This document shows, piece after piece, positions 15,786 to 56,877 of a stretch of 64,000 bases of DNA. How positions within the stretch are numbered: position 1 is the stretch's first letter; each line of letters begins with the position of its first letter. Both the position numbers and the translations under genes were made by a program. Below the pieces are notes generated by a model that had not been told where the DNA came from, made no database searches, and was given only the letters and a program-made list of their open reading frames with translations. Origin of the DNA: Patescibacteria group bacterium (lineage in GTDB: Bacteria > Patescibacteriota > Minisyncoccia > Minisyncoccales > JANBVM01); NCBI GenBank assembly GCA_024238995.1, contig JANBVL010000003.1:6098-70097 (forward strand), in the 5' to 3' direction.

Positions 15786-16709
15786 TTAATTATGTTTTTT
15801 TAAATAATCAAAAACAGCTAAAAATGTTTTTGCCCCTTCACCACAACTAGCAACAATTTGTTTGTACTTTCCTTCATTAACATCACCTGCAGCAAAAAGT
15901 CCTGGTGTTTTTGTTTCACAACTCTCTGGTTTAACTTTAATTTCATTTCTTTCATTAAAATCAACTAAGTCTTTAACAATTGAACCTGCTGGGACCAACC
16001 CTATTTCAACAAAAACTCCTTCAACCTTTAAGGTCTTTTCTTGCTTAGTAACTCTGTCTTCGTAAACTAAAGAGTGAACAAATTCACCGCCTTTAATCTC
16101 TTTTAATTGAGTATTGGTAATGATTTCAGTTTTTTTATTCTTCTTAACTATCTCTTGACTTTCTTGATCAGCTTTTGGCTCAGAGCCATACTCTAAGATA
16201 TATATTTTCCTGGCAATATTGCTCAAGAAAAGAGCTGTTTCAAACCCAGAATTCCCTCCTCCAACCACAGCTACATCTTTATTGGTAAATATTGCACCAT
16301 CGCAAACAGCGCAAAAACTAACTCCCTTTCCAATAAACTCTTCTTCTCCTGGAATATTTAAAGCTTTTGGACCAGCTCCTGTGGCAATAATAACAGTTTT
16401 TGCTTTAAATTTAATATTATCTTTTGTACAAATTAAAAAAACATCTCCTTGTTTTTCGACTTTCACTATCTCTTCCATTTTAATCTCAACCTGGTCTTTA
16501 AATTTTCTTAAATGATTTTCAAATTTTTTAATCAAATCTAAACCCGTGATTTCTTCAAATCCAGGATAATTCTCTATTGCTACAGCTTTTTTTGTAATCT
16601 GCCCTCCAAAGTTTTTAGTGACAAGAAGTGTTTTAACTTTTTGTCTTGCTGCGTAAATACCAGCCGTAATGCCAGCTGGCCCTCCGCCAATTATAATTAA
16701 ATCGTACAT
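15786..16709 (-). CDS. trxB: thioredoxin reductase
   Basis: The ORF-track start (16760) overlaps ftsZ. ATG at 16709 gives MYDLIIIGGGPAG. Redox-active CAVCDG and NADPH motif GGGNSG are present. Confidence 0.9.
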   Translation of the reverse strand: MYDLIIIGGGPAGITAGIYAARQKVKTLLVTKNFGGQITKKAVAIENYPGFEEITGLDLIKKFENHLRKFKDQVEIKMEEIVKVEKQGDVFLICTKDNIKFKAKTVIIATGAGPKALNIPGEEEFIGKGVSFCAVCDGAIFTNKDVAVVGGGNSGFETALFLSNIARKIYILEYGSEPKADQESQEIVKKNKKTEIITNTQLKEIKGGEFVHSLVYEDRVTKQEKTLKVEGVFVEIGLVPAGSIVKDLVDFNERNEIKVKPESCETKTPGLFAAGDVNEGKYKQIVASCGEGAKTFLAVFDYLKKHN

Positions 16710-16714
16710 AATTA

Positions 16715-18136
16715 TTAGTCTTGAGATGCTTTTCTTCTCAGGAAAGCAGGTGCTTCCCAAAGTTTTTCTTTAGAAACTATCTCAGCCTCTTCATTTTCTA
16801 TGTCTTTTTTAATTTGCAATGCATTTTTCCTTACCCTATTTGACGTTAACGAAGCTTGAGACGTTTTTTCTAAAATAGGAACTTCTGACTTCTCAACTTT
16901 AATTTTAATTTTTCTTTTCTTTCTAATTAGTTTAACCTTTTTAATATTTTGTTTTTGCACTATTTTGGGCTGAGCTTTTGGTTTAACTTCTGATTCAATT
17001 TTTGTAATTATATCTTTTCCGTTACAACCTGTTGCCAATAAACTTATTTTTATTTTTGAAGATTTACTTCCACGAGAAACTCCAAAGATAATTTTTGCTT
17101 CTTTGCTTACTAATTTAGCAATAGATTCAGAAATGTGATTTACCTGAAGCAGGGAAAGATCACTCTGTCCTGAAATATTAAATACAACTCCTTTAGCACC
17201 ATCAATACCATAAGGATAAATTGGATAATTAATTATCTTATCAAGCGCATCTTTATCGTCATCTTTTGAAAGTTCCATTGAGTTTAAATAAGTCAGTTTT
17301 CCTTTGCCATCAAAAATAGTTTTTAAATCAGCAAAATCAATATTAATTATCCCAGCTTTATATATTATTTCAATCAAACCTTGAATGCTGTTTGTTAAGT
17401 GCTTGTTTATTGCTGATAAGGCTTTTTTTAACGGCGCACTTTTATCAACAATATGGAAAATTCTTTCATTTGGAATAACAGAAAAAGCATTTAATTCTGT
17501 TTTCAATTTTTCCAAAGATTTTTTAGCAGTATCCATTTTTTTCTCGCCTTCAAATTTAAAGGGCAAAGTAAAAATACCGTAAGTCAAATTATTCAAGTTC
17601 TTTGAAACTCTTGCAAAAATTGGAGCAGCTCCAGAACCCAATCCTCCTCCTAAACAAGCAACTAAAATAACTAAATCCTGACCTTCTAACATTTCCTTAA
17701 TCTTATCTCTTTCTTGCTTGGCAATTTCCTCACCCATAATGGAATTTGTTCCTGTTCCTAAGCCATGAGTCAAGGCTTCACCAAGCTGCCATTTTTTAAC
17801 CTTTTTACCTAAAGAATTTAAAGCTTTAATATCTGAATTTGCTGCATAAAAAGTAGTTCCTTTAATTCTTTGAGCGATTTCGGAAACAATAGAACTACCA
17901 CCGCCGCCAATTCCAATCAATCTGATTTTTATCTTTTTTATTGACTCTTCACCTTTTTCAATCTTTGTCTTTTTAGGCCTTCCTCTTTTCCTAGGTCGCC
18001 CTCTTCCTTTAGACCCTCCTGTCTTTTTAGGCCTTCCTCTTTTCCTAGGTCGCCCTCTTCCTTTTCTTGAAATAGCTTTTTTACGATAAATTCTTGATTT
18101 TCTCCTTTTTCTTGTTGTTTTTTTTCTTTTAACCAT
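16715..18136 (-). CDS. ftsZ: cell division protein FtsZ with N-terminal AT-hook-like basic repeats
   Basis: 473 aa. The tubulin/FtsZ core is marked by GIGGGGSS and GGGLGSGAAP. The C-terminal peptide is WEAPAFLRRK. The first ~60 residues carry four GRP motifs (GRGRPRKRGRPKK, twice). Confidence 0.9.
   Translation of the reverse strand: MVKRKKTTRKRRKSRIYRKKAISRKGRGRPRKRGRPKKTGGSKGRGRPRKRGRPKKTKIEKGEESIKKIKIRLIGIGGGGSSIVSEIAQRIKGTTFYAANSDIKALNSLGKKVKKWQLGEALTHGLGTGTNSIMGEEIAKQERDKIKEMLEGQDLVILVACLGGGLGSGAAPIFARVSKNLNNLTYGIFTLPFKFEGEKKMDTAKKSLEKLKTELNAFSVIPNERIFHIVDKSAPLKKALSAINKHLTNSIQGLIEIIYKAGIINIDFADLKTIFDGKGKLTYLNSMELSKDDDKDALDKIINYPIYPYGIDGAKGVVFNISGQSDLSLLQVNHISESIAKLVSKEAKIIFGVSRGSKSSKIKISLLATGCNGKDIITKIESEVKPKAQPKIVQKQNIKKVKLIRKKRKIKIKVEKSEVPILEKTSQASLTSNRVRKNALQIKKDIENEEAEIVSKEKLWEAPAFLRRKASQD
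17967..18064 (-). repeat. in-frame 54-bp tandem duplication encoding the FtsZ AT-hook pair
   Basis: 44 nt are identical at 17967-18010 and 21-18064 offset by 54 bp (18021-18064), i.e. 18 aa per unit (KTGGSKGRGRPRKRGRPK). Confidence 0.9.
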
Positions 18137-18142: not shown

Positions 18143-18171
18143 AGTATACGAATTTGACCAAAAACGGTCAA
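18143..18171 (-). promoter_or_regulatory. sigma70-type promoter of ftsZ-trxB, leaderless geometry
   Basis: On the minus strand: TTGACC (18171-18166), 17 bp, TATACT (18148-18143), 6 nt, then ATG (18136). The -35 lies in the palindrome TTGACC-N6-GGTCAA (18153-18171). Confidence 0.5.
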
Positions 18172-18266: not shown

Positions 18267-20012
18267 ATGCTCAAGATTTTTAAAACATTTTACAAATTCA
18301 TATTTAATTATAAAAAAAGATACATTATCTTTATTTTTATAATGACCTCTGCTGCAATTGTAAGCAATCTTATACCGCTTGTTTATAAGGCCTTGATTGA
18401 TGCAATTCCTTCTTATGATTATCAACTGCTGCTAAAAATTATAATGCTGTTTGTTGGTGTAAGGCTTGTTGGTAACTGGCTGCAAACTCTAAGCCGCTAT
18501 CTAGGAGATAAAATAATTCTTCCAGCAAGCAGAGATGTTAGAATACGCGTGTTCAAGCGCATTCAAGACTTAGATTTTGCTTTTCATGTTAATAAAAGCA
18601 CTGGTTCTTTAATTAGTGCTTTCAAAAGAGGAGATTCTGCATTTCATCATATTTTCAATAACCTGCATTTTAGCATTGCCCAGACAATAATAAGTTTGAT
18701 TATAGTAATATTTTTCTTTAATAGAATCACGCCTTTAATTTCCCTTTTAATGGTAGTGATATTTATAATCAATGGTTTAATTAGCTGGTTTTTAATTAAA
18801 TTCAATATTAAAAAAAGAAAGGCTTTTTTGAAGTCTGAAGATAATATCTCGGGCATTATTGCTGATAACATGATTAATTACGAAACAGTTAAATTCTTTG
18901 CCCAAGAAAAAAGAGAAGAAAACAGATTAAAAAAACAATTTAAAAATTGGCTTAAAAAACTCTGGGAATATGCAAACAGTTTTCGTTTAATGGAGATATC
19001 TATTGGAACTTTGTCCAATATCGGAATATTCGCTATTTTTTATATTGTTATTAACAAGCTGGTCAATGCTGAAATCACTATTGGTGATTTAGTTCTAGTT
19101 ATTAGCTTTACTACTGCTTTTTATTTTAGATTCTTTGACCTGCTTCATCGCTTAAGAGATATTGCTCAAAATTATGCTGATATTGAACGTTACTTTTCTG
19201 TTCTAGATGAAAATATATTAATCAAAGATCCAGTAAAACCTGTTAAAGTTAAAGAAATAAATGGAGAAATTCAATTTAATAATGTCAGTTTTAGTTATCC
19301 AGATAATGAAAAAGATCTGCTGTGTGATATTAATCTGCACATTAAACCTGGAGAATCAGTTGCTTTTGTAGGCCGTTCTGGTGTAGGGAAAACAACCATA
19401 ATTAGAATGCTTTTGAGATTTTACGATGTTAATAAGGGAAAAATATTAATTGATGGAATTAATATACGCGACCTAACCAAATCACAGCTCAGAAGCTTCA
19501 TTGGTGTTGTGCCCCAGGAACCAATTCTTTTTAATAATACAATTGGTTTTAATATCAGTTATGGCAATCCAACGGCAAAAAAAGATGACATCAAACAAGT
19601 TGTAAAAATGGCCAATCTTGACCGTTTTATCGGCAGTTTGTCCTTAGGTTATGAAACAATGGTTGGTGAAAGAGGAATTAAATTATCAGGTGGTCAAAAA
19701 CAACGATTGGCAATTGCCAGAATGCTTTTAATTAATCCGAAAATTATTATTTTCGATGAAGCAACCAGTAATCTTGATTCTGAATCAGAACGTTTGATTC
19801 AAGACGCTTTGTGGAAAATAGCTCGGAACAGAACAATTTTAATAATTGCTCATCGTTTTTCAACAATAAGGCGCGCTGATAAAATTATTGTTTTAGAACA
19901 AGGGAGAATCGTTGAATCAGGAACTCATCATGAATTAATTAAAAAAGCAGGCCTTTACTCCTACTTATGGAAACTCCAATCAAAAGAAAAAGAAACAGAA
20001 CTTTTACTATAA
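18267..20012 (+). CDS. ABC exporter, fused permease/ATPase (MsbA-like)
   Basis: 581 aa with a six-TM N-terminal half, Walker A GRSGVGKTT, signature LSGGQKQR and Walker B IIIFDEATS. Confidence 0.85.
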   Translation: MLKIFKTFYKFIFNYKKRYIIFIFIMTSAAIVSNLIPLVYKALIDAIPSYDYQLLLKIIMLFVGVRLVGNWLQTLSRYLGDKIILPASRDVRIRVFKRIQDLDFAFHVNKSTGSLISAFKRGDSAFHHIFNNLHFSIAQTIISLIIVIFFFNRITPLISLLMVVIFIINGLISWFLIKFNIKKRKAFLKSEDNISGIIADNMINYETVKFFAQEKREENRLKKQFKNWLKKLWEYANSFRLMEISIGTLSNIGIFAIFYIVINKLVNAEITIGDLVLVISFTTAFYFRFFDLLHRLRDIAQNYADIERYFSVLDENILIKDPVKPVKVKEINGEIQFNNVSFSYPDNEKDLLCDINLHIKPGESVAFVGRSGVGKTTIIRMLLRFYDVNKGKILIDGINIRDLTKSQLRSFIGVVPQEPILFNNTIGFNISYGNPTAKKDDIKQVVKMANLDRFIGSLSLGYETMVGERGIKLSGGQKQRLAIARMLLINPKIIIFDEATSNLDSESERLIQDALWKIARNRTILIIAHRFSTIRRADKIIVLEQGRIVESGTHHELIKKAGLYSYLWKLQSKEKETELLL

Positions 20013-20018
20013 ACCTTT

Positions 20019-21203
20019 TTAATGAAGACTTGACATAGCCCGACGGGCTGAAAAAATAGCCAAAATTATTCCTATAGCTCCTAAAGAGAAAATTATTACC
20101 CAAGAGACTCCAAGAGAAAAAAGAAAGAAAAGCAACGATAGGGCCAATATTCTTCCTGCACCCAAAGCAATTTCGCGACGAATTATAAACTCAAAAGGGT
20201 GAGCATTTTTTAAAGATTGTTCATACATAAAAATACTGAAAGGAATAGCAAAGAATATCCAAGCTCCTTGCTGTAAGGAATCAAAGATGAAAAGACTAAT
20301 CGGGGTTTGAGCAAAAGCTTTAAAAAACCAAATTATAGCAGCTATTGTTCCTCCCCAAAGAATGGCTTTTTTTTCTTTCCCTTTTTGAGCTAATCTGGAA
20401 GATTGAGTTAAGAGAATTAAAGAAAAGAAAACAGCTCCTGAGGTTAATACTCCCAAGGACTGGTAAGAATCTAAAATAGAAAAGGCAAAGAGAGGCCAGC
20501 AAACACTCCAGACAACTTGGTTTATTCCTTGGCCAAAAAAGGAAACGAGGAGATTTTGGTTATTTTTTTTCTTTAATCCTTTAATGATTCTTTTAGGAGA
20601 AGGAACTCCGTAGTCTTTATGGTGATGAGTAATAAATAGAGGAATAGAAGAAAGAAAAACAAGTAAGGCCGCCAAAGAATAAACAAGCGGAAAACCTGCT
20701 TGGCTAATAAGCACACCGCCAAGAAAAGGAGCGAGAGCCGAAGAAAAACGAAGAAGCATTCTTTCAATTTTTACATCTTCCTCAAACCCTCCTTCTGCCC
20801 CGTCTTCGGTAAAAATCAAATGATAAGGAAGCCAATAGAAAATAGTTTCCAAAGCTGAAAGAGCAGCCGCCGGAATCAAAAACAAAATATTGTTTTTAGC
20901 AAAGATTAAAAAAACAAATTTTAGAATAAGGATAAGGTTAGAAAACAAAATTGATCTGCGAAACCGAAGGCGGTATACAAGGGGGGCTACAAATATAGTT
21001 AACAAAAAGTTTCCTCCCCAAGAAATAGTGAAATATAAAAGAACCCAGAATAAGCTTTTGGTAAGATAAAAAATATAAAGAGGGACAAAAATTCCTGCCA
21101 ATGAAAGGGCTGTTTTTCGGAAAAAAATATTTAGATATAAAGAAGAAGGTTTCCCTCGGCGTAAATGATTGTCAAAAAAGTTTAAAAAATTATGAAAAGC
21201 CAT
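20019..21203 (-). CDS. polytopic membrane transporter, MFS-like
   Basis: 394 aa with about 12 hydrophobic segments and a central basic loop. No specific signature was recognised. Confidence 0.5.
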   Translation of the reverse strand: MAFHNFLNFFDNHLRRGKPSSLYLNIFFRKTALSLAGIFVPLYIFYLTKSLFWVLLYFTISWGGNFLLTIFVAPLVYRLRFRRSILFSNLILILKFVFLIFAKNNILFLIPAAALSALETIFYWLPYHLIFTEDGAEGGFEEDVKIERMLLRFSSALAPFLGGVLISQAGFPLVYSLAALLVFLSSIPLFITHHHKDYGVPSPKRIIKGLKKKNNQNLLVSFFGQGINQVVWSVCWPLFAFSILDSYQSLGVLTSGAVFFSLILLTQSSRLAQKGKEKKAILWGGTIAAIIWFFKAFAQTPISLFIFDSLQQGAWIFFAIPFSIFMYEQSLKNAHPFEFIIRREIALGAGRILALSLLFFLFSLGVSWVIIFSLGAIGIILAIFSARRAMSSLH

Positions 21204-21241
21204 ATTATACCTTTACTGAATCTCTTTGCCTCAATTTTATC

Positions 21242-21267
21242 AAAAAATCGCCCAAAGAGCGATTTTT
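21242..21267 (-). terminator. intrinsic terminator after tRNA-Gln
   Basis: The RNA reads AAAAAUCGC-UCUUUGG-GCGAUUUUUU followed by GAUAAAAUU. Confidence 0.55.
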
Positions 21268-21273
21268 AATTTG

Positions 21274-21344
21274 CTGGAGGGCTAGGATTCGAACCTAGAT
21301 CCCAGGTGCCAGAAACCTGTCGCCTACCATTAGCATACCCTCCA
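21274..21344 (-). tRNA. tRNA-Gln (anticodon CUG)
   Basis: Folded by hand into a 71-nt cloverleaf. Acceptor stem UGGAGGG/CCCUCCA with the U1-A72 pair typical of bacterial tRNA-Gln. Anticodon stem-loop CAGGU-UUCUGGC-ACCUG. T-arm CUAGG-UUCGAAU-CCUAG. CCA is not encoded. Confidence 0.9.
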
Positions 21345-22277: not shown

Positions 22278-22976
22278 TTAAAGTATGAATCTTCCTCTTT
22301 TTTCATCTCTTGTAATTTTTCCATCTTCTAAAGTAATCACTCTTTTACCCAGCTTATTGATAACCTCCTTGTCATGAGTAGACAGTACAACTGTTGTTCC
22401 CATTTTATTTATTTTTACTAAAAGTTCAATAATATCCAAAGTATGATATGGATCTAAATTTCCTGTTGGCTCATCAGCTAAAATAATTTCAGGCCTATGA
22501 ATTAAAGCCCGGGCAATAGCTGCTCTTTGTTTTTCTCCTCCTGAAAGCTGAGTTGGGAAATTGTCTGCCTTGTCCTTCAATCCAACTATTTCTAAAATTA
22601 TTGGCACAGCTCTTTTAATTTCCTTGTCTGAAGCGCCAATTGTTTCAAGAATATAGCTGACATTTTCATAAGTTGTTTTTGAAGAAAGAAGCTTGTAATC
22701 CTGAAATACTGCACCTATTTTTCTTCTTAAATATGGCAAATCTTCTGATTTAATTTTATGAACATCTTGATCTTTAAAAAACACCCTTCCTTTTGTTGGT
22801 TCTTCTTCAGCTAAAAGAAGTTTAAGCAAGGTTGTTTTGCCAGCGCCTGATTTTCCAACAATTGAAATAAAATCTTTTGCCTTTATTTCAAAAGATACGT
22901 CTGCTAAAGCTATTGTTGGCTTGGAATTAACTGTACAGGCTGGATAAATTTTAGAAATATTTTCAAATTTAATCAT
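22278..22976 (-). CDS. ftsE: cell division ATP-binding protein FtsE
   Basis: 232 aa with Walker A GKSGAGKTT, LSGGEKQR and ILADEPTGNLD. Confidence 0.9.
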   Translation of the reverse strand: MIKFENISKIYPACTVNSKPTIALADVSFEIKAKDFISIVGKSGAGKTTLLKLLLAEEEPTKGRVFFKDQDVHKIKSEDLPYLRRKIGAVFQDYKLLSSKTTYENVSYILETIGASDKEIKRAVPIILEIVGLKDKADNFPTQLSGGEKQRAAIARALIHRPEIILADEPTGNLDPYHTLDIIELLVKINKMGTTVVLSTHDKEVINKLGKRVITLEDGKITRDEKRGRFIL

Positions 22977-24037
22977 TTTTTAATTTAATTTCAGCTTCAA
23001 TAAATTCATCTAATTTGCCGTTTAGCACCTCATCTACTTGGGCAGTTTCAATGTTAGTTCTTAAATCTTTAACCAGCTTATATGGATGAAGCACATAACT
23101 TCTTATTTGATTTCCCCAGCTGGCAGAAGTTTTTTCACCTTTTACTTTGGAAACTTCTTTCTTCTGTTTCTCCTTATAGAACTTATAAAGCCGTGAATAA
23201 AGAACCTCTGTTGCCTTTTTTTTATTATTAGCCTGTGATCTTTCCGACTGACAGGACGCAATAATCTTAGTTGGTAAATGAGTAATCCTTACTGCTGTTT
23301 CACGCTTGTTAACATACTGACCCCCTGGACCTGATGCCCTGAAATACTCAGTCCTTAAATCTTCTGGTTTTACTTCAATATCTTTTTCATCAAGCTTTTT
23401 TACCTCAGGCATTACTTCCACTGAAGCAAAAGAAGTGTGTCTTAATTTTTTAGGAGAAAAGGGCGAAAGTCTGACTAATCTATGAGTCCCATTTTCATTT
23501 TTCAAAATTCCATAAGCAAACCTTCCTTTAATTTCCAGCGTCACTGATTTTGTACCAATTCTTCCTTCAGGTCCTCCTCCTTCGCCAAAAGATTGATCCA
23601 GTATTTTTATTTTAAAATCCTTGTCTTCACAATATCTTTCATACATTCTTAAAAGCATTGTTGCCCAGTCTTGAGCATCTTGTCCTCCAGCACCAGAATA
23701 AATTGATAAAATTGCATTTCCTTTGTCATATTTTCCAGAAAAAAGAACTTGAATCTCTTTTTCTTTTAATTTGCCTTCAATTTCTTCAATCTTTTCTTCA
23801 GTTTTAATATTTTCAATTTCTTTTTTTAATGAATCAAACTCAATTAATTCATCAGTTAATTGGCTGAATTCCTGATTTAATTCTATCGCTTTTTCTTTAT
23901 TTTTCCAAAGATCTGGATCTTGAACTTGTTTTTCTAGCTCTTTTAACCTTGTGCGCCTATTTTCAATGTCAAAGATAGTCCTCTAAAAAGAGGTGTTTAT
24001 TTTTTAAACCTTGAATTTTCTCACTTAAGTTTTCCAT
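22969..24037 (-). CDS. prfB: peptide chain release factor 2, requires programmed +1 frameshift
   Basis: Frame 0 runs from ATG 24037 (MENLSEKIQGLKNKHLFLEDYL) to the in-frame TGA at 23971-23969. The +1 frame runs from GAC at 23970 and was translated by hand with no stop down to 22969. It contains the SPF (RLSPFSPKK) and GGQ (SGPGGQYVN) motifs. The ORF track shows only the C-terminal 229 aa. Confidence 0.93.
23968..23983 (-). promoter_or_regulatory. RF2 autoregulatory +1 frameshift site
   Basis: The mRNA reads GAG GAC UAU CUU UGA C. This is the canonical CUU UGA C slippery/stop context with a purine-rich GAGGA element 3 nt upstream. Confidence 0.85.
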
Positions 24038-30315: not shown

Positions 30316-31438
30316 TGCCAGGAAGTTTTTCTTCAGCTAAAAATTTTAACATTGCGCCCCCACCAGTAGAAATAAAATTAAACTTTTCTTTTAAATTAAA
30401 CTTATCAATGGCCATAATAGTTTCTCCCCCGCCAGCAACCTTAAAAGCAGATTTATTTTCAGTAATTGCTTGAGCAATTTCTTTTGTTCCTTTCTCAAAC
30501 CTCTTGTCTTCATACATTCCCAGTGGTCCGTTCCATAGAATTGTTTTAGCGCGACTGATCACTTCTTTAAAGAGCCCTATTGTTTCTGGGCCGATGTCAT
30601 AAATATCTTCTTGTTTTTTAACAGTCCCTATTCCCCCTTCCCTGAGATTATCAATTGAATCTTTTAAAGCAATAATGCCGTCCAAAGGCAAATGAAGTCT
30701 TTTATCTGTTAAGTCAATTTGAGCTATTAAGCCATCTTCTTGAGCCTGCCTCTCTTTTAATATTCCTTTATAAGCTAAAATTGCTTCACCGATTTTGCCT
30801 CCTATTAGTAGGTAATCGCTTTTTTTCAAAAGATTTAAAATTGTTTTAATTTTTGTTTTTATTTTAACTCCTCCAATAATAATTACAAAAGGTTGTTCTG
30901 GTCTTTCTTTCAACTTAGACAGGGTTAATATTTCTTTTTTAAATAAAAGCCCAGCTGCTTTTGGCAAGTATTGAGCAATAGAAACAATTGAAGCATGATT
31001 TCTATGGGAAACAGAAAAAGCTTCATTTATAAAAACATCTCCAAAGCTAGCTAGTTTTTTTGCAAATTCTTGGTCATTATCTTTTTCCTGATCATAGAAC
31101 CTTAAATTTTCAAAAAGAACTACTTTATTGGAATTCAACATCTCAGCAATTTCTTTCTGGTCTTTTTCAAAATAATCAGAAACTAATTCTATTTTGTCAT
31201 TTAACAGCTCTTTTAATCTAGAAACAATCAAACTCAAGCTTTTATTCTCACCTTTAGTTTCTAAATGACTCATTAAAATGACCTTTGCATTTTTATCAAT
31301 CAAATACTTTATTGTTGGAATCACTGACTGAATCCTGAAATCATTTAAAATATCCCCATTTTTTGAAATGGGGACATTGAAATCACACCTCAGCAGCACT
31401 GTTTTGTTTTTTAAATCAAGTTCAGTAATTTTTTTCAT
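30293..31438 (-). CDS. pgk: phosphoglycerate kinase
   Basis: 381 aa with RCDFNVP, SHLETKG and C-terminal STGGGAMLKFL motifs. Confidence 0.92.
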   Translation of the reverse strand: MKKITELDLKNKTVLLRCDFNVPISKNGDILNDFRIQSVIPTIKYLIDKNAKVILMSHLETKGENKSLSLIVSRLKELLNDKIELVSDYFEKDQKEIAEMLNSNKVVLFENLRFYDQEKDNDQEFAKKLASFGDVFINEAFSVSHRNHASIVSIAQYLPKAAGLLFKKEILTLSKLKERPEQPFVIIIGGVKIKTKIKTILNLLKKSDYLLIGGKIGEAILAYKGILKERQAQEDGLIAQIDLTDKRLHLPLDGIIALKDSIDNLREGGIGTVKKQEDIYDIGPETIGLFKEVISRAKTILWNGPLGMYEDKRFEKGTKEIAQAITENKSAFKVAGGGETIMAIDKFNLKEKFNFISTGGGAMLKFLAEEKLPGIEALNHG

Positions 31439-33054
31439 TTTTCTTTTTTAAGTGCTTTTTCTAAATTCTTTTTCAACTTATCCAAATCAATCTGGCTTTT
31501 CTCTCTTTTTGGCTTTTCTTTATCAACAATTTTTCTTGTAGAAGAGAATGAAAGAGGTTCTATTCTTTTAACTTGATCTAAAGAAAGCTTCTCATCCTTT
31601 TTTCTCCTTTTCTTTAAACAATCTTTGCAGTAAACAGGCCTTCCTGGTTCTGGTTTAAAATTAACTTTAATCTGCTTTGAACATGAAGAACAAACCGCAT
31701 CATGCATTGGACTTGATTTTTTTTCTGAATAAAAGGTTTCAGAAACTTTTTCTTCTTCCATCCAGCGCTTTATCTTTTCTTCAACAACACTTCTTTCAAT
31801 ACTGTACCTTTCTCTTGCAACCATAATAATTTTGTCTTTATGCGACTGATCAGGAAATTTATAAGGCTCAAGAGTGTGAGCTGAAAAAGGTCTTCCTGCC
31901 ACACCATCAATCATTAATTTTATATACACATTATACTTGGCTAAATTAACAAAATCTTCAGCGGTTATTTCTGGTACAAATTCTTTTTCTAGATACTCGG
32001 CATCTTCAGCTCCTACTCTAAAAACTATAAAAGTGCCAACATTACCGAACACAGCATCTCTTACCTTGGTACTTCTTCCTAATGCTGTCATTTCTTCAAG
32101 CTGAGCCATATACTGATTTGCTAAAACCAAAGATAACCTGTACTTTCTTGCCTCAGATAAAATATTGGCAAATGCTTCAGTTGCAAAGTTTTGAAACTCA
32201 TCAACATATAAAAAGAAATCTTTTCTTTGTTTTTCGGGTATATCAACCCGCGACATTGCTGCTAACTGAAGCTTTGTAATAAGCAAGGCTCCTAAAAGCC
32301 TTGAATTCTCCTCACCTATTTTTCCTTTTGATAAGTTAGCTATTAAAATCTTGCCGTCGTCCATTAGTTCTCTCATATTAAGCCGAGATTTAACTTGGCC
32401 AATAATATTTCTAATTAAGGGATTGGAGATTAACTGCCCAATTTTGTTTTGAATAGCAGCAGTTGCTTCAACTTCATATCTTTGGGTATAGCGGGCAAAT
32501 TCATTATTCCAGAAAGACTTAACCATTGGATCTTTAACTTTTGCAACAATTTGTTTTCTGTATTCTGGATCAGCCAGCATCCTGTTAACGCCCAGCAGTG
32601 TTGAATTGGGATCTTCTAAAAGTGCTAAAATAGAATTGCTTAAAATATATTCCATTCTAGCTGACCAAACATCAGGCCAGATTTTCTTAAACACTTCCAT
32701 TAGTCCTGATGCAACTAAGTGTCTGTACTCAGGATCAACTTTCTCCATTACATTAAAAGGCATAGGATAATTCAAGTCAGCAGGATTAAAATAAATAACA
32801 TCATTAATTCTTTCTGCAGGAATAAAATCCAATATTTTTTCTGCAGCTTCTCCATGAGGATCAACAACACCAACCCCTTTTCCATCTCTGATGTCTTGGA
32901 TTACCATGTTTTCTAAAAGTGCGGTTTTCCCCATGCCTGTTTTCCCAACAACATAGACATGGCGACGCCTGTCATCAGTTTTAATTCCAAATCTCTTTCT
33001 TTGATTTCTAAAAGTTGTTTCTCCTAAAAGAGTTATTTTGTTTTCTTTACTCAT
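31435..33054 (-). CDS. FtsK/HerA/TraD-superfamily P-loop ATPase (type IV coupling-protein-like) with C-terminal CxxC-x17-CxxC zinc ribbon
   Basis: 539 aa with Walker A GKTGMGKT and Walker B FFLYVDEFQNF. No TM segment. The C-terminus reads CSSC-x17-CKDC (..PGRPVYCKDC) followed by a Lys-rich tail. Confidence 0.7.
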   Translation of the reverse strand: MSKENKITLLGETTFRNQRKRFGIKTDDRRRHVYVVGKTGMGKTALLENMVIQDIRDGKGVGVVDPHGEAAEKILDFIPAERINDVIYFNPADLNYPMPFNVMEKVDPEYRHLVASGLMEVFKKIWPDVWSARMEYILSNSILALLEDPNSTLLGVNRMLADPEYRKQIVAKVKDPMVKSFWNNEFARYTQRYEVEATAAIQNKIGQLISNPLIRNIIGQVKSRLNMRELMDDGKILIANLSKGKIGEENSRLLGALLITKLQLAAMSRVDIPEKQRKDFFLYVDEFQNFATEAFANILSEARKYRLSLVLANQYMAQLEEMTALGRSTKVRDAVFGNVGTFIVFRVGAEDAEYLEKEFVPEITAEDFVNLAKYNVYIKLMIDGVAGRPFSAHTLEPYKFPDQSHKDKIIMVARERYSIERSVVEEKIKRWMEEEKVSETFYSEKKSSPMHDAVCSSCSKQIKVNFKPEPGRPVYCKDCLKKRRKKDEKLSLDQVKRIEPLSFSSTRKIVDKEKPKREKSQIDLDKLKKNLEKALKKEK

Positions 33055-33056
33055 AA

Positions 33057-34391
33057 TTATTCTATTGGTAATTCAGGAGGTGCAGCTCTTTTCACTTCAG
33101 CCCTTGAAATAGTAGGTGTTGGTGCTACCCGCCAAGATGGAAAATGAAATAAAGATGCTAATTCTTCGGTATTTAAAATAAACTTGGCTTCTTTTGGAGG
33201 CGTTCTTGGAAAAACAGGACCAAGTCTGCTCAAATAATTTCTAAACATTCTTCTGTTTTTCAGATAAAGCCTTCTTGGTATTAAAGCATTAATAGGCAAA
33301 AATCTGCCTTTTTTAACTTTGCTAATAGTTGGACTAAAAGGAACTAAGGCATTTAAATCAAGAGTTGAATAACTTGAAAAAAAAGTAAACCCAAGCCTAA
33401 AATTGCCTTTATTAAAAACATCTCTTTTACCTAAAAAGATAAATCTAATATTGGTTTCGAAAAGTGGTTTAGAGTTTTTCTGTTCCAAAGCATAAACAAT
33501 ATCCCTTTCACCAGGAGTAAGTTTCATTTCAGGAGGAAAAAATGGTTTTTTTTCTTCAGGTTCTTCGCTTTCAGGCACTTTACCTGTTATAAGAATATCT
33601 GCTGCTTCTAAAAGCATTGGTTTGGTTGCTGTTGATGGTTTTACTTCTCTTTTTGCTAATTTATCTCTTTCTTCTTCAGAAGCCTTAACCCACTTTTCTG
33701 CATTCTTTTCTGAAATAGGCTTGCATGCTATTTGAACCCAAAATTGCTCTCCTGGTTTTACTTTTGACAAAGCTTCTAAAAGCGTTGCTACTGGATCAAC
33801 TCTTCTTTCTTCAACACCCTCTTGTTCTGTCTCAAACTTCTTATAAGTTAAAATTGGATAAAAATCAGGTTTGACTAATTTGTAATCAGTTGCCCACATA
33901 TTCCAATTGTCATTAGGAATATCCTGAGGCACTGCTTTTGTATAATCATCAGCTACACTAATTTCAGCATCAGGGTATTGAGCATAAATACTTGCTTCAA
34001 TTGCATCTCTGTAACCATCATGGCACCTAATAAAAAAATGGATTTCTCCTCCAAAAGACGCAACTTCAAAAACAATTGATGTCTGAACCTGACCATCAAT
34101 CCATATCTCCCACCAGTTAGGAGGATGATAAGTAGCGCCATGGAAACTTGCAATTACATCTTCCATTGCTCTAATTGGCTTGATACTTTCCTTTGGAAGT
34201 TTTATTTCTAAAAGTACTGGCTTGTAAACTGTTCTTATCCACCAGTAAGCTCTCCATTGATGCCATAAAAAAACAAATGGTTTCCATAAAATAAAAGGAG
34301 CAGGCAGCCACCACCAATTTCTAAAGATCTGCCACAAAAAGCCAAATATTGGAGATAGAAAAGAAAATGTTGAAGGGGGCGCTGCTATCAT
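33057..34391 (-). CDS. membrane protein partner of the coupling-protein-like ATPase (function unknown)
   Basis: 444 aa with a Trp-rich N-terminal membrane segment (FLWQIFRNWWWLPAPFILWKPFVFLW) and then a large soluble domain. Its stop lies 2 nt before the ATPase start. Confidence 0.55.
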   Translation of the reverse strand: MIAAPPSTFSFLSPIFGFLWQIFRNWWWLPAPFILWKPFVFLWHQWRAYWWIRTVYKPVLLEIKLPKESIKPIRAMEDVIASFHGATYHPPNWWEIWIDGQVQTSIVFEVASFGGEIHFFIRCHDGYRDAIEASIYAQYPDAEISVADDYTKAVPQDIPNDNWNMWATDYKLVKPDFYPILTYKKFETEQEGVEERRVDPVATLLEALSKVKPGEQFWVQIACKPISEKNAEKWVKASEEERDKLAKREVKPSTATKPMLLEAADILITGKVPESEEPEEKKPFFPPEMKLTPGERDIVYALEQKNSKPLFETNIRFIFLGKRDVFNKGNFRLGFTFFSSYSTLDLNALVPFSPTISKVKKGRFLPINALIPRRLYLKNRRMFRNYLSRLGPVFPRTPPKEAKFILNTEELASLFHFPSWRVAPTPTISRAEVKRAAPPELPIE

Positions 34392-39234: not shown

Positions 39235-40212
39235 TCAGGATCTCTTTAAAGAAACTTGGATTTTAATCTGAGAAATGATCTTTTCAAACAGTCCTTTATT
39301 ATCTTGACCTAATTGTTCTGGAAAAAACAATCCTTTTTGAGAAATATTTTTACTCAAAACTTCTTTTGCTAAAACTGTTGGGAAAATTGCTGTAATTTTT
39401 TGCATTGAATTTAATGATTCATTTTTCTTTGAAATTGATTTCATCTTCCAAGTAATTTGTTTTTTATCAGTTTTAATTTTAATTATTCCAACAGTTAAAT
39501 TATCTTGTTTCTTAGACTCTAATTTTTTTGCTGTAGATCCAATATTCTCATCTTTTAATAGATTTTTATTATTTAAAGATTTAAAAAATTCATGAAAACC
39601 TAAATTCCTAATTATCCTATAACTCATATTTTTAACCTTTAAATTATCGATTAAAGAGCCTAATCCTTCAGCCAAATATGTTTCAGAATTAATTCCTTGA
39701 ATTTTTTGTTTCTTATAATCAGAAAAAGGTTTTACTTTAACTTTTTTTCCATTTTTAATTAATATTGGCTCTAGCTGATGTCCTTCTATTAAATCTTCAA
39801 AGCACCATAGGAATGGAAATGAGTTTTTTTGTCCTGACAAACTTCCTGCTGAAATTTCGATTTGTTTAACTTTATTCTGTCTTGCTTCCCTGCCACATAT
39901 AAAATTAATAAGTCCTGGAGAAAAACCAGCAAAAGGAATTACTAAAATTCCTGCTTTTTTAATTTTGTTTTCGTTTTCTAAATAAAATTCATAATCTAAA
40001 TCAGAAATATCAATAAAATCTTTCTTATGCTTCAAAGCTAGTTTCAAACCAAGCTCTCCGATATCACCAGGCAAAGCTGAAATTATTAAATCAGCATTTT
40101 TAACATTTTCTTCTGAATTAAAAAAACAAGCTTTTGTCTTGCTTTTTTCACGCCTTAAATAATGAATAAGTGCTTTCCCTATTCTTCCTTTCCCCAGAAT
40201 TAAAACTTTCAT
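39235..40212 (-). CDS. saccharopine-dehydrogenase-family NAD(P) oxidoreductase, polyamine-operon associated
   Basis: 325 aa with an N-terminal Rossmann motif (KVLILGKGRIGKA) and GFSPGLINF, typical of saccharopine or carboxy(nor)spermidine dehydrogenase folds. Its start overlaps the speE stop (ATGA). Confidence 0.5.
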   Translation of the reverse strand: MKVLILGKGRIGKALIHYLRREKSKTKACFFNSEENVKNADLIISALPGDIGELGLKLALKHKKDFIDISDLDYEFYLENENKIKKAGILVIPFAGFSPGLINFICGREARQNKVKQIEISAGSLSGQKNSFPFLWCFEDLIEGHQLEPILIKNGKKVKVKPFSDYKKQKIQGINSETYLAEGLGSLIDNLKVKNMSYRIIRNLGFHEFFKSLNNKNLLKDENIGSTAKKLESKKQDNLTVGIIKIKTDKKQITWKMKSISKKNESLNSMQKITAIFPTVLAKEVLSKNISQKGLFFPEQLGQDNKGLFEKIISQIKIQVSLKRS

Positions 40213-41102
40213 TTTATTTTATAAGCTTCAGGTAAAACCATACTAGCTTTATGGATTTCTGGAGAATAATATTTAAACTTGTGTTTTTTAGCTAATTTAT
40301 CAAACTTACCTTGTATTTTTTTAAAATTAATTTTTCCCAAATCTATGCTTTCAGAACCAGCAATAAAACTATATTCTCCGCAATGATAAGACGGCACAGT
40401 AAATCTGTAAATAACAGTGTTAGAAAAGATTGCTTTTATTCCTTTAAAAATCTTTTTAATTAGAGTATTAAAATCTAAAAAAGAAGCTCCCAAAGTAATA
40501 ATAATTCCATGTTTAGTCAAAGATTTTAAAACCTGATTATAAAACACTTTAGTGTATAAAGGAGAAGACAAGCCCTGATATTCTAAATTCGTACAATCAA
40601 TAATTACTGCATCATAATGATTAATATGTTTTTTAATAAAATCTTGCCCTGGTTCAATGTAAACATTAACCCTTTTATCAGAAAAAGATTTTTTATTAAT
40701 AGAAATAAGATGTTTTTTACAAATCTTTATAAACTCCTCATCCAGCTCAACTAAATCTACTTTTTTAACATTATGCTTTAAAACTTCTCTTAAAATACAA
40801 CCATCACCTCCCCCAATAATTAAAATATTTTTAGGGTTGGGGTGGGAAAACATTACTGGATGAACCATTATCTCGTGGTAAATAAACTCATCTTTTTGAG
40901 ATAATTGATTGATGCCATCTAAAAAAAGAATTCTACCATATAAGTCATTATCAAAAATCAAAACATTCTGGAACTTGGTTTTTCCTTTAAATATTAATTT
41001 ATCAATAGAAAAACAATGTTCTATTGTTTTTTTTCGTTTTCCAGGAAGTGATTTTTCACAAAACCACTTTTTTTTAGAGATAGGCATAAAACGGCTTATC
41101 AA
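40209..41102 (-). CDS. speE: spermidine synthase (polyamine aminopropyltransferase)
   Basis: 297 aa with IIGGGDGCILREVLKH, DLVELDEEF and DAVIIDCTN motifs. Confidence 0.85.
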   Translation of the reverse strand: MISRFMPISKKKWFCEKSLPGKRKKTIEHCFSIDKLIFKGKTKFQNVLIFDNDLYGRILFLDGINQLSQKDEFIYHEIMVHPVMFSHPNPKNILIIGGGDGCILREVLKHNVKKVDLVELDEEFIKICKKHLISINKKSFSDKRVNVYIEPGQDFIKKHINHYDAVIIDCTNLEYQGLSSPLYTKVFYNQVLKSLTKHGIIITLGASFLDFNTLIKKIFKGIKAIFSNTVIYRFTVPSYHCGEYSFIAGSESIDLGKINFKKIQGKFDKLAKKHKFKYYSPEIHKASMVLPEAYKIK

Positions 41103-42201
41103 ACTTAACTCTTCTTGGTCTTTTACCCAGATAATTGAAAATGTATAAAGCAGCGCCTAATTTAGGTGATTTTTCAATAGTTTTTTTATTAATAAATTTA
41201 GTCATTCTTTTTAAAACAACTTCATCTTCCTTGTACAACTTAATATGAGGGTAATAAACTTTATTTAGAATCAATTCATTAATAATTAGATTATTTTTTG
41301 AAAAGAATTCTTGCAGAAACAAAAACCTATTTCCTATTGCCTCATCTCCTATCTCTAAAAACACAAAGCCACCATCTTTTCCTAACTGATCTGTGCCAAA
41401 CTTAATAAATGTTTTGATTCCATCTTCTGTATAAATTGGGTTGGCTAAAAATCCAACAAAGTTTTCTTTTAAATCTTTTTTCTTACTTAAATCAACTTTT
41501 TTAGTTTTAATTTTTAAGTCAAACTTCTTGGCCAAGATATCAATACATTCTAAAAGTTGAGTATCAATGTCAATTGCCAGGCATTCAATATTTGGATCAG
41601 CTAAAGTCAGAATAACTGAAATAAAGTCATCATCACCGACAAGTAGAAACTTTTTGTTAAAAGGAATCTTTGCAAGTATTTTCTCTGCAACAAAAAATGC
41701 AGATTCAGCTGATATTGGCATTTGGTCCCATTTAGCTTTAACTTTAAATCTTTCAAACTTTTTAAATAAATTAATAACTGCTTGTTTGTCTTGAGCTTTA
41801 ATTTTTAATTTCTTTTCAACAACACTTTTAATCTGTTTGGCGGTTTGAGGTTTGGGAATAAACTTTTCAATTCTTTTTTTAAGTAAAGTAGTTTTTCCAT
41901 TTCTTGAAACTTTAATTATTTTTTCATCTGTTAAAAGTTTCAGATAAGGATATAGATCCCAGTCTTCTAAGGCTTCTTTTGTAATAAATTCAAAAACATT
42001 GTCAGAATAAATTATTGTTTTGATGTCATGCAAAAACCCTAAGAATGTAGGTTTGTAATAATTATCATAAAACTCACCAAGAATCTTATCTGACACCTTC
42101 AAATCCTCAAGGCTTGTTGAGTGCTTTTTTCTGTCTTCAATAAACCTTGTTTTCTGAGATTTTAAAAATCTGATATATAGTTTTTTAAAATATTTTTCCA
42201 T
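41074..42201 (-). CDS. DUF43/BpsA-like aminopropyltransferase (branched-chain polyamine synthase homologue)
   Basis: 375 aa. LLVGDDDFISVILTL, LAIDIDTQLLECI and FVGFLANPIYTEDGIKTFIKFG align by eye with the recalled BpsA blocks VLGDDDLTSVAL, VLDIDERL and FDTFITDPPETVEAIRAFVGRG. The DPP triad is replaced by NPI. Confidence 0.6.
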   Translation of the reverse strand: MEKYFKKLYIRFLKSQKTRFIEDRKKHSTSLEDLKVSDKILGEFYDNYYKPTFLGFLHDIKTIIYSDNVFEFITKEALEDWDLYPYLKLLTDEKIIKVSRNGKTTLLKKRIEKFIPKPQTAKQIKSVVEKKLKIKAQDKQAVINLFKKFERFKVKAKWDQMPISAESAFFVAEKILAKIPFNKKFLLVGDDDFISVILTLADPNIECLAIDIDTQLLECIDILAKKFDLKIKTKKVDLSKKKDLKENFVGFLANPIYTEDGIKTFIKFGTDQLGKDGGFVFLEIGDEAIGNRFLFLQEFFSKNNLIINELILNKVYYPHIKLYKEDEVVLKRMTKFINKKTIEKSPKLGAALYIFNYLGKRPRRVKFDKPFYAYL

Positions 42202-42205
42202 TGTT

Positions 42206-42601
42206 TTAAGCTTTGCCTCTTTTTACTTTCTGAATTTCAATTTTCTTAGGGACAAATACACTTTTTAAATAATCTAAAGCCTTATCGGGAGCAGATTTAT
42301 CACCACAAGTAAAAATATCAATAGCAACATAATTGTATTCAGGCCAAGAATGAAGTGTAAGATGACTTTCAGCTAATAAAACAACCCCAGTGATTCCCTG
42401 CGGTTCAAATTTATGGATTACAATTTTTAAAGGAGTACAATTAGCTTTTTTTACTGCTCTGATGAGAATTTCTTTGATTTCTTTCTTATCTTCAATAATT
42501 CTGCCATTCCAAAATTCAGCGATCAGATGAACGCCTGCGTGTTGAAATTTATTTTTTGTATCTATGGTCCATTTAATAGACCTCTTTGTTTTTGTGTTCA
42601 T
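42206..42601 (-). CDS. speH: S-adenosylmethionine decarboxylase proenzyme (class 1, SpeH/SpeD)
   Basis: The ORF-track start (42613) is TTG. ATG at 42601 gives MNTKTKRS... The self-processing site LLAESHLTLHSWPE (E|S cleavage yields the pyruvoyl group) is present. Confidence 0.85.
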   Translation of the reverse strand: MNTKTKRSIKWTIDTKNKFQHAGVHLIAEFWNGRIIEDKKEIKEILIRAVKKANCTPLKIVIHKFEPQGITGVVLLAESHLTLHSWPEYNYVAIDIFTCGDKSAPDKALDYLKSVFVPKKIEIQKVKRGKA

Positions 42602-42610
42602 AGTTTTAGT

Positions 42611-42705
42611 CAATCGCTTTATCTTTCAGCACTAATTAATGCTGAAAAACTCGCTCAACAACTTGTAGGTTGTTGAGAAAAACAAAGAGTTAAAAAAAGC
42701 GATTG
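42611..42705 (-). promoter_or_regulatory. structured three-way-junction RNA leader upstream of speH
   Basis: There are three perfect helices. P1 is 10 bp (42611-42620 with 42696-42705). One hairpin is 9 bp (42654-42662 with 42669-42677). The other is 8 bp (42624-42631 with 42640-42647). The P1 3' strand ends 9 nt before the AUG. Confidence 0.4.
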
Positions 42706-48746: not shown

Positions 48747-50051
48747 ATGTCAAGTATGAGGAAAATCCTTGTTTTTTTGGGGGATATTTTCTTAATCTAT
48801 CTCTCACTTTTTCTAACCTTATTGTTAGGGTTTTTTGGTGAATTTAGTTTTGAAATATTCTCTTTGCATGTGTTGCCTTTTTCCATTATTTATGTTTTTT
48901 GGTTCATTATTTTCTATATTTTCGGCCTTTACGACCTTCATTTGATTAAAACTAAAACCTCTTTTTATGCCAATACTCTTGGGGCCCTTGCTGTAAGTTT
49001 AGTTCTGGGAATGCTTTTCTTTTATACAGTTCCTTTTTTTGAAATTGCTCCAAAAACCAATTTAGTAATAAATATTTTAATTTTTGGAATCTTGTTTTTA
49101 GGCTGGCGCAGATTATTTTATTCTCTGTTTTCAGTGCACTTTTTAAACAGAACCATAATAATGGGGAAAGGTTCTGAAGTTGAAATATTAAAAGAAGAAA
49201 TTAATGAAAAACCTTATCTCGGCTATAAGATAATTTCAATAGATATAAATAAAGATCTTTTTTCTCAGATTCAAAAACATAACATTGACACAGTGATTTT
49301 CACAGAAGAATTTGAATCAAACCCTGAAATGCTTAAAGCCCTTTATTTTTGTTTACCAGCTAGAGTAAACTTTTTAGAATTTGCTAAAGCTTATGAATTG
49401 ATTTATGAAAAAATTCCGGTCTCAACAGTTTCTCAATCCTGGTTTTTAGAGAATATAAAGGAAAGAGAGAAAAGTTTTTATGATGAAACAAAAAGGATTT
49501 TTGATATAATTTCAGCCAGCTTTTTATTCATTCTAACTCTCCCCCTTTGGCCTTTTATTGCCATGGCTATTAAATTAGAAGATAAAGGTTATGTATTTTA
49601 TTCTCAGAAAAGAATTGGAAAAGACAGAAATTCTTTTGTTTTATATAAATTCAGGTCAATGAAAGTTGGAGCAGAAAAAGAGAATGCTGTTTGGGCAGAA
49701 AAAGAAGACAAAAGAATAACTAAAGTTGGAAAGTTTTTAAGACAAAGTCATTTAGATGAAATCCCTCAAATGATAAATGTAATAAAAGGAGATATTTCTT
49801 TGGTTGGACCAAGACCAGAAAGGCCAGAGTTTGTTGAAAAACTAGAGAGAGAAATTCCCCATTATCATTTAAGACATCTAGTAAAACCTGGGTTTACAGG
49901 CTGGGCCCAGATAAAATTCAGGTATGGAAGGTCTTTTATAGACAGCCGTAAAAAATTTCAGTATGATTTATATTATTTGAAAAATAGAAACTTTTTGCTT
50001 GATATAGGAATTTTACTTAGAACTTTTCAATTATTTTTTAAAAAAGAATAA
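48747..50051 (+). CDS. polyprenyl-phosphate glycosyl-1-phosphate transferase (WbaP/bacterial sugar transferase family)
   Basis: 434 aa with 4-5 N-terminal TM. The C-terminal Bac_transf domain carries KRIFDI, LYKFRSM, DEIPQMINVIKGDISLVGPRPE. Confidence 0.88.
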   Translation: MSSMRKILVFLGDIFLIYLSLFLTLLLGFFGEFSFEIFSLHVLPFSIIYVFWFIIFYIFGLYDLHLIKTKTSFYANTLGALAVSLVLGMLFFYTVPFFEIAPKTNLVINILIFGILFLGWRRLFYSLFSVHFLNRTIIMGKGSEVEILKEEINEKPYLGYKIISIDINKDLFSQIQKHNIDTVIFTEEFESNPEMLKALYFCLPARVNFLEFAKAYELIYEKIPVSTVSQSWFLENIKEREKSFYDETKRIFDIISASFLFILTLPLWPFIAMAIKLEDKGYVFYSQKRIGKDRNSFVLYKFRSMKVGAEKENAVWAEKEDKRITKVGKFLRQSHLDEIPQMINVIKGDISLVGPRPERPEFVEKLEREIPHYHLRHLVKPGFTGWAQIKFRYGRSFIDSRKKFQYDLYYLKNRNFLLDIGILLRTFQLFFKKE

Positions 50052-50052
50052 A

Positions 50053-50910: not shown

Positions 50911-50915
50911 TTATT

Positions 50916-52319: not shown

Positions 52320-52322
52320 AAT

Positions 52323-55061: not shown

Positions 55062-55090
55062 TTTTTCCTTGTTAATGAGTCAATAATAAA

Positions 55091-56803: not shown

Positions 56804-56877
56804 ACCTTGTTAGAGAATTGTTCTTTTTGTTTTTACTGTCATAATCTTTAACAGGGTAAAAATAAAGTTCCTAAGAT

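Follow-up and report, generated by a model that had tools for sequence, protein, structure and literature searches.

An FtsZ with an N-terminal array of canonical AT-hook motifs in a clade of small-genome Patescibacteria

Can the main protein of the division ring carry its own element for holding the chromosome? To our knowledge, FtsZ is normally an acidic protein, as the FtsZs of model organisms are, with a short N-terminus and with contacts to DNA only through adaptors such as Noc, SlmA and MatP-ZapB. The question is raised by an ftsZ gene found at positions 16715..18136, on the minus strand, of a 64,000-nucleotide stretch of contig JANBVL010000003.1 (the window, a term used here for the whole stretch that was analyzed), which comes from a small-genome, Nealsonbacteria-like Patescibacteria bacterium. 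The initial annotation of this DNA had described an N-terminal extension with AT-hook-like motifs ahead of the FtsZ core, and the product of the open reading frame (ORF) opens exactly with the residues that it quoted, MVKRKKTTRKRRKSRIYRKKAISRKGRGRPRKRGRPKKTGGSKGRGRPRKRGRPKKTK. The AT-hook FtsZ is a real and new domain combination, both modules of which were already known, and its hooks may bind nucleic acid.

The ORF, of 473 amino acids plus the stop codon, codes for a full-length FtsZ preceded by approximately 69 disordered residues. The Pfam families Tubulin (PF00091, residues 70-230, E 1e-31) and FtsZ_C (PF12327, residues 293-371, E 1e-11) are both found, and TIGR00065 gives a full-length alignment (positions 6-349/353, E 1e-78) with a score of 264.9 bits, to be compared with an equivalog cut-off of 295.2 that is a naming threshold and not a structural feature. 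Additionally, 49 FtsZ sequences of the PDB match at E <= 1e-20, with chains reaching E 4e-63. In these alignments, residue 13 of the FtsZ of Bacillus subtilis (2vam) stands opposite residue 70 of the query and, thus, the extension is about 57 residues longer than the standard FtsZ N-terminus. The globular core (residues 70-385, 16982..17929, on the minus strand like all the ftsZ features given below) is delimited by Pfam, by the PDB alignment and by an AlphaFold2 model in which the predicted local distance difference test score (pLDDT) is mostly >90. Its T7 loop, N265-I-D267-F-A-D270, is (nearly) invariant across the family. The T4 loop (residues 163-169) reads GGGLGSG, compared with the signature GGGTG(S/T)G, and the Thr position is occupied by L in 28, V in 21, T in 18 and A in 7 of 76 family sequences.

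The C-terminal side of the protein is also recognizable as that of an FtsZ. The linker (residues 386-456, 16769..16981) has a net charge of +13 and is mostly disordered (386-438), with a helix at its end. This helix, RKNALQIKKDIENEEAEIVSKEKLWE (residues 439-460, 16757-16822), is confidently predicted by AlphaFold2, and it precedes and overlaps the C-terminal docking peptide; R436, K437, N438, E447, E450 and E457, at or near it, are (nearly) invariant in the family. The protein terminates in ...LWEAPAFLRRKASQD, and W460, P463, F465, L466 and R467 are also (nearly) invariant. The conserved C-terminal peptide, EKLWEAPAFLRRKASQD (16718..16768), reads as a partner-docking motif of the FtsA type, which we take, from established knowledge of FtsZ, to dock FtsA and other partners. 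The whole protein is basic, with an isoelectric point (pI) of 10.25, and the core has a pI of 9.3.

Ahead of the core lies the N-terminal tail (residues 1-69, 17930..18136). Residues 1-62 contain 34 K/R and a single D/E, which corresponds to a net charge of +33 and a pI of 12, and the first 40 residues hold 23 K/R, compared with a maximum of 12 in the other 51 proteins of the window. As for its structure, which it had been suggested to predict, AlphaFold2 (with a 76-sequence alignment) gives residues 1-69 a pLDDT of ~47-54 and no secondary structure, as would be expected of a disordered segment. A signal peptide or a twin-arginine translocation (Tat) signal can be ruled out in the tail, as it has no hydrophobic segment.

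Four AT-hook cores were found in this tail by a motif scan and by Pfam AT_hook: R27-G-R-P30 (18047..18058), R33-G-R-P36 (18029..18040), R45-G-R-P48 (17993..18004) and R51-G-R-P54 (17975..17986), with their GRP triplets beginning at 18055, 18037, 18001 and 17983, respectively. All four read R-G-R-P, in the contexts K-G-RGRP-RK and RK-RGRP-KK, with basic residues on both sides. The four motifs match both sequence definitions used here, namely, a G-R-P core with basic residues within 1-5 amino acids (PMC4615771) and the consensus of Reeves, TPKRPRGRPKK (PMC11354804), so that what had been described as AT-hook-like is canonical by sequence definition. With Pfam AT_hook (PF02178), the isolated 34-residue array, and it alone, passes the gathering threshold of 17.4, with 24.3 bits and four matching stretches, and this is the only family that matches the tail consistently. 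The same family matches six of the seven other tails of the clade described below (E 0.004-0.13, 12.7-17.2 bits) and none of three Lys-rich control tails. A search of PDB sequences with the hook array gave no match, and a search of 5.8 billion proteins with the tail alone returned 91 candidates and one meaningless match (E = 7), which is uninformative, as low-complexity words were evidently unindexed. RGRP is absent from the rest of the 64-kb window and from the ORFs in ~130 kb of the flanks of its relatives. There is, additionally, what appears to be a decayed fifth hook at residues 11-14 (18095..18106), which reads RRKS (agg aga aaa tca) where the relative L048 has RGRP (agg gga agg cca); three other relatives (P0003, P0004 and L012, the latter from a complete 647.5-kb Candidatus Nealsonbacteria genome) also have RGRP at the equivalent place, directly before an RIY motif.

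How the motif has been maintained suggests that RGRP has been selected as such and not for its charge alone. In the clade comparison, all 30 hooks of 10 genes are R-G-R-P, although their codons vary synonymously at every position (AGA/AGG, GGA/GGG, CGA/AGG/AGA and CCT/CCC/CCA), while the residues that flank the core alternate between K and R. Moreover, the R:K ratio is 95:87 in the tails of the clade and 218:1049 in other tails, and this use of R opposes the AT mutational bias. It is the combination of invariance, synonymous codon turnover and a shift from K to R against that bias that argues for selection on the motif, and this evolutionary evidence is also the strongest for reading the motifs as AT hooks.

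The extension as such is not peculiar to this organism. A basic N-terminal tail is universal in this Paceibacteria FtsZ family, as it is found in 120 of the 120 best homologues, all of them from Patescibacteria (Nealsonbacteria, Paceibacterales and Portnoybacteria). The tails of these homologues have 9-73 residues and a median net charge of +7 (excluding the conserved lead-in to strand S1), the +33 of the window being the maximum. What is confined is the GRP motif: it occurs in the nearest 8 of the 120 homologues, which form one clade with the window sequence in a tree of core domains, and in none of the K/R-rich tails of the 112 more distant ones. Further members of the clade were obtained from GTDB genomes and from a pattern scan of metagenomes, in which a double-hook DNA pattern found nine matches in 241 million records, all of them belonging to this FtsZ clade. 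In total, ~15 distinct genes of the clade carry 1, 2, 3, 4 or 5 hooks, so that the copy number does vary among relatives, a point that it had been proposed to check; of two complete genomes, CP179889.1 has three hooks and CP061210.1 a Lys-rich tail. The clade loci have 30-35% G+C, at the AT-rich end of a family with a median of 37%. Judging from this distribution, the AT-hook array is a lineage-specific version of the basic tail that all the relatives carry.

For the array to matter as a peptide, it has to be translated, and several characteristics of the gene indicate that it is. The ratio of nonsynonymous to synonymous substitution rates (dN/dS) of the tail, compared with the sister sequence L001, is 0.21 at a dS of 0.50 (that of the core is 0.10), which indicates that the tail is under purifying selection, and the reading frame is preserved across all the indels in 15 genes. 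No in-frame ATG or GTG exists ahead of the core, and the sole in-frame TTG is codon 73, within strand S1; initiation there would cut this strand and drop the nearly invariant K67, K70 and R72. Finally, a promoter-like site lies at a fixed distance from the annotated ATG. Owing to this conserved distance, the dN/dS value and the lack of an alternative start, the tail appears to be translated, a downstream start codon can be rejected, and the extension is, as initially proposed, genuine.

The promoter-like site is TTGACC-17 nt-TATACT (18143..18171), with a consensus score of 10/12, and its last base lies 6 nt before the ATG. This layout, including the 6-nt gap, is identical in all eight clade loci despite their diverged flanks, and a -35/-10 pair with a constant 6-nt gap to the ATG is found in 29 of the 34 family loci that could be evaluated (L001, L003-L004, L006-L016, L018-L024 and others). 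No Shine-Dalgarno (GGAGG-like) element is present upstream of the ftsZ ATG. As a conserved distance from the -10 hexamer to the ATG is the signature of a leaderless mRNA starting at the AUG, the ftsZ mRNA is probably leaderless, with a transcription start that coincides with the A of the ATG or adjoins it, to judge from the match to the promoter consensus. Most genes in the window likewise lack a Shine-Dalgarno element in the 25 nt upstream that were inspected. The -35 hexamer of this promoter is overlapped by a perfect palindrome, TTGACCgtttttGGTCAA (18154-18171). L048, the closest relative, also has the palindrome, and L001 and the other relatives do not; it may be an operator or may have arisen by chance.

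Where does the array come from? In this genome, it consists of two RGRPRKRGRPKK double hooks coded by a perfect direct repeat, with copy 1 (K25-T39, KGRGRPRKRGRPKKT) at 18020..18064 and the identical copy 2 (K43-T57) at 17966..18010. Although the repeat is perfect, as initially described, its length is 45 nt rather than 44 nt, and the copies are spaced 54 nt from start to start. They were found by an exact-repeat search; Tandem Repeats Finder missed the 54-nt unit and reported nothing but imperfect periods of 18 nt. The identity of both copies had been read as the result of a recent 54-bp duplication, but comparison with the relatives L001/P0001 and L048 (85% and 87% identical, respectively, to the window FtsZ) contradicts this. 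Both share the two-unit architecture with the window, with a homologous spacer (TGGS, TTGL and AGGS), and their two copies differ from each other in 7 (L001/P0001) and 9 (L048) of 45 nt, while copy 1 of L001 is only 3 nt apart from copy 1 of L048. Consequently, orthologous copies are more alike than paralogous ones, which, together with the common architecture, indicates that the duplication predates the lineages of the window, L001 and L048, and a simple recent tandem duplication is ruled out by the diverged copies that they share.

Both copies in the window are 4-5 nt from copy 1 of these relatives and 7-8 nt from their copy 2. It is therefore copy 2 that was probably overwritten recently by copy 1 through gene conversion. 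The best reading of these distances would be an old duplication followed, in the window lineage, by recent conversion or by loss and re-duplication. In addition, four-hook arrays with other spacers (IGIL, IGML, IGVL and MNML) are found in other sub-branches beside genes with two or three hooks. These different spacers and the decayed hook at residues 11-14 suggest that the array is dynamic in both directions; slippage among its 54-bp units, or gene conversion, would make it grow, shrink and become homogeneous.

What might such an array do? We consider, with a probability of roughly 0.45, that the hooks bind nucleic acid, most likely the minor groove of A/T tracts in the chromosome; the tail may in this way allow the division ring to hold AT-rich DNA at its inner face. 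In the model that we infer for the ligand (DNA), for the direction in which the tail points and for what it does in the cell, the generic Lys-rich tail would have been rebuilt, in a small Nealsonbacteria-like clade, into a canonical AT-hook array. The RGR core of each hook would enter the minor groove where A/T tracts make it narrow, such tracts being plentiful in a genome with 32% G+C, and the polymerised FtsZ filament would present a multivalent row of hooks. The N-terminus would exit the protofilament on the face opposite to the membrane-directed C-terminal peptide, and the hooks would then face the cytoplasm and connect the inside of the ring with the nucleoid. The outcome would be a link between chromosome and divisome that needs no adaptor; alternatively, DNA would be a polyanion that scaffolds the assembly of FtsZ or slows it. 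The ring may thus be anchored, positioned, scaffolded or restrained. The predicted disorder of residues 1-69 is that of AT-hook regions generally. Regarding the orientation, rings turn inside-out when the membrane tether of FtsZ is moved from its C-terminal to its N-terminal side (Osawa and Erickson, 2011, as described in PMC5797765), and the N-terminus would thus be on the face away from the membrane, where the hooks should face the nucleoid.

Several observations weigh against this proposal. The Pfam AT_hook score of the 68-residue tail is 9.6 bits, below the threshold (although the four stretches are found), and the full FtsZ protein gives no AT_hook match at E <= 1; the loss of score in the longer sequence is due to composition correction. 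Plain Lys-rich tails suffice for the wider family, so that charge would be all that the ancestral function requires, and the hooks may represent a variant of a charged tail, either neutral or quantitative. The whole protein being basic, affinity for nucleic acids may not be specific to the hooks. In addition, a flexible tail of 69 residues could reach round the filament, which makes the argument about orientation not decisive. There are also precedents for other ligands: the basic, disordered extension at the N-terminus of mycobacterial FtsK showed no DNA binding in electrophoretic mobility shift assays and bound cardiolipin and phosphatidic acid (PMC13277299), and some canonical AT hooks bind RNA (PMC4615771).

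The rival explanation that survives best, which we consider somewhat unlikely, is that the tail works as a generic polycation in which the hooks are incidental, RGRP being merely one way to supply charge. The tail would then act by electrostatic attraction on FtsZ itself or on polyanions of any kind: it could bundle protofilaments, pair with the conserved acidic helix and the linker of neighboring subunits, or form condensates with RNA, DNA or polyphosphate, in a manner resembling the C-terminal variable region of the B. subtilis FtsZ. The basic C-terminal variable region of this protein and the N-terminal peptide of cyanobacterial FtsZ are known to tune lateral association and polymerisation; compared with the tail described here, the former is much shorter and lies at the other terminus, the latter is not polycationic, and neither is known to have a DNA-binding motif. 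That all 120 homologues have basic tails, with GRP in the closest eight alone, is what would be expected of a generic polycation, as is the free variation of tail length and hook number (1-5), typical of low-specificity multivalent modules; the helix at residues 439-460, with its invariant E447, E450 and E457, offers a possible intramolecular partner. Similarly, HMGA-type and histone H1-like Lys-rich domains are reportedly functionally equivalent in orthologues of the bacterial protein CarD (Garcia-Heras et al., 2009, as cited in PMC4374960), which would swap hooks for a Lys-rich, H1-like tail and mirror the hook and Lys-rich tails of FtsZ. By contrast, if only charge mattered, G and P would not be expected to stay fixed in all 30 hooks while their codons turn over synonymously, nor would K be expected to give way to R in spite of the mutational bias. 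Attraction between tail and body is also less obvious here than in acidic FtsZs, given the pI of the core and the positive charge of the linker.

Binding of the tail to anionic phospholipids, as a membrane anchor that supplements or replaces tethering of the FtsA type, appears clearly improbable. It finds parallels in the lipids bound by the mycobacterial FtsK extension, which is basic and disordered like the FtsZ tail (PMC13277299), and in the membrane-binding role proposed for the segment that extends the second FtsZ of Atribacter laminatus at its N-terminus (PMC7736352), two cases in which a core division protein has also acquired an N-terminal extension specific to its lineage. Unlike the tail described here, however, neither of them has AT hooks; the FtsK extension binds lipids and not DNA, and that of Atribacter is a predicted amphipathic helix on a second FtsZ copy. 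The location of ftsZ, in a prfB-ftsE-ftsX ... ftsZ-trxB-eno neighbourhood and not adjacent to ftsA, would also be consistent with a substitute anchor. Nevertheless, the tail has no amphipathic or hydrophobic element, as AlphaFold2 predicts no helix in it and hydrophobic residues are nearly absent, and the C-terminal docking peptide is intact and conserved, from which it follows that the filament has a conventional tether on its opposite face. Tethering from the N-terminal side would reverse the curvature relation (PMC5797765), and lipid binding leaves the conservation of RGRP unexplained.

Finally, although the mRNA is probably leaderless and the first codons are rich in AAA/AGA across the family, it is hardly credible that the tail is an annotation or mRNA-level artefact, with a start downstream or with an A-rich 5′ coding region that keeps a leaderless mRNA unstructured and codes for a functionless peptide, as the start codon and selection data given above oppose it, the hooks use G+C-rich codons and 69 residues far exceed the needs of an effect on initiation.

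Returning to the binding of nucleic acid by the hooks, the closest parallels are found in chromatin and in transcription. In the HMGA proteins (HMGA1/2, PF02178), as in this FtsZ, there is an R-G-R-P core with K/R within 1-5 residues, and several hooks are found within one disordered segment. The FtsZ sequences GRGRPRK and RGRPKK are the same as hook cores of HMGA1, the former being that of hook 1 of human HMGA1a. The two systems differ in that the array is placed here at the N-terminus of a cytoskeletal GTPase, whereas HMGA is an acidic-tailed chromatin protein, and in that the FtsZ hooks of a pair are 6 residues apart from start to start, while the spacing in HMGA is wider. In bacteria, Myxococcus xanthus CarD, with four RGRP hooks, and WhiB7 illustrate how hooks in a disordered region give DNA binding to a domain that does not bind DNA (PMC4374960; PMC11354804). 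Both resemble this FtsZ, known here from its sequence, in having bacterial RGRP hooks in such a region; however, they are transcription factors that work with RNA polymerase and have C-terminal hooks, while FtsZ belongs to the division cytoskeleton and has them at the N-terminus. Full-text searches of the literature retrieved neither a paper that connects FtsZ to AT hooks nor a description of the basic N-terminal tail of Patescibacteria FtsZ.

If DNA binding by the hooks is accepted, a wider and more tentative proposal, which we hold with less confidence, is that the FtsZ filaments of the clade are tethered to DNA by cytoplasm-facing hooks, with no adaptor, and that, more broadly, the basic FtsZ of Paceibacteria, with its polycationic N-terminal tails, would form a division cytoskeleton coupled to nucleic acid, which would suit ultra-small cells that have no nucleoid-free space. 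Such a system would be a built-in counterpart of those for nucleoid occlusion and Ter linkage. In Noc, SlmA and MatP-ZapB-ZapA, the link of DNA to FtsZ or the divisome is made by separate, sequence-specific DNA-binding proteins. By contrast, the putative DNA-binding element would be here within FtsZ itself, and its sequence specificity would be low (A/T tracts).

Beyond this clade, there is a whole class of uncultured, ultra-small bacteria with a basic FtsZ and a polycationic N-terminal tail, which one clade has made into a hook array. Should the tail bind DNA, this would be the first case of a division cytoskeleton holding the chromosome directly, and it would offer a concrete way, testable at low cost, into the coordination of division with the nucleoid in Patescibacteria. 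With their 1-5 hooks, the genes of the clade form, along with their Lys-rich relatives, a natural allelic series. Should the tail not bind DNA, the locus would still illustrate how a micro-repeat within a coding sequence evolves in concert, as well as the conservation of a leaderless ftsZ.

Regarding the genomic context, the initial annotation had also pointed to the lack of Min and Noc-like genes. It is true that no FtsA, Min, Noc or ParB is found among the ORFs of at least 120 amino acids in the window, but this remark carries little weight, as the window is about one tenth of a genome of ~650 kb (judged from the complete genomes of relatives) and some genomes of the candidate phyla radiation (CPR) have a second, divergent FtsZ (PMC9871819). 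The neighbourhood of the gene, prfB-ftsE-ftsX ... ftsZ-trxB-eno-pgm, is conserved and lies apart from any division and cell wall (dcw) cluster. Compared with L003, L008 and L011, an ATP-binding cassette (ABC) transporter divergent from ftsZ, a membrane protein resembling the major facilitator superfamily (MFS) and a tRNA-Gln are inserted between ftsX and ftsZ (18267-21344); L006 also has the ABC transporter.

On the other side of ftsZ, a thioredoxin-reductase-like gene (15786-16760, minus strand) has a listed TTG start at 16760 that overlaps the end of ftsZ. As its relatives encode proteins of 307 amino acids, this gene probably starts at the ATG at 16709 (MYDLIIIGGG...), 5 nt past the ftsZ stop codon. 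In L010 (10296-12395 of CP061210.1), the thioredoxin-reductase gene downstream of ftsZ has an intein with a LAGLIDADG homing-endonuclease domain, according to Pfam. Also in this neighbourhood, prfB, which codes for release factor 2, is split (22969-24037, minus strand), with a 22-codon piece that ends in ...EDYL-TGA and a frame that resumes at +1. The site, CTT TGA C (~23965-23971), is that of a classic programmed +1 frameshift, with a Shine-Dalgarno-like AGAGGA element just upstream.

Farther away, four consecutive genes for polyamine biosynthesis are found at 39235-42613 (minus strand), coding for an S-adenosylmethionine decarboxylase, a BpsA-like branched-chain polyamine synthase, a spermidine synthase and a saccharopine-dehydrogenase-like protein. 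At 31435-34391 (minus strand), a VirD4/TrwB-like coupling ATPase, which has a treble-clef zinc finger at its C-terminus, adjoins a 444-amino-acid protein that has no Pfam match, and the pair may be the remnant of a system for DNA transfer or uptake. Finally, a large cluster at 48747-63716 comprises sugar transferases, glycosyltransferases, radical S-adenosylmethionine (radical-SAM)/B12 enzymes, methyltransferases and a flippase, and is probably a locus for cell-surface polysaccharide or glycan modification.

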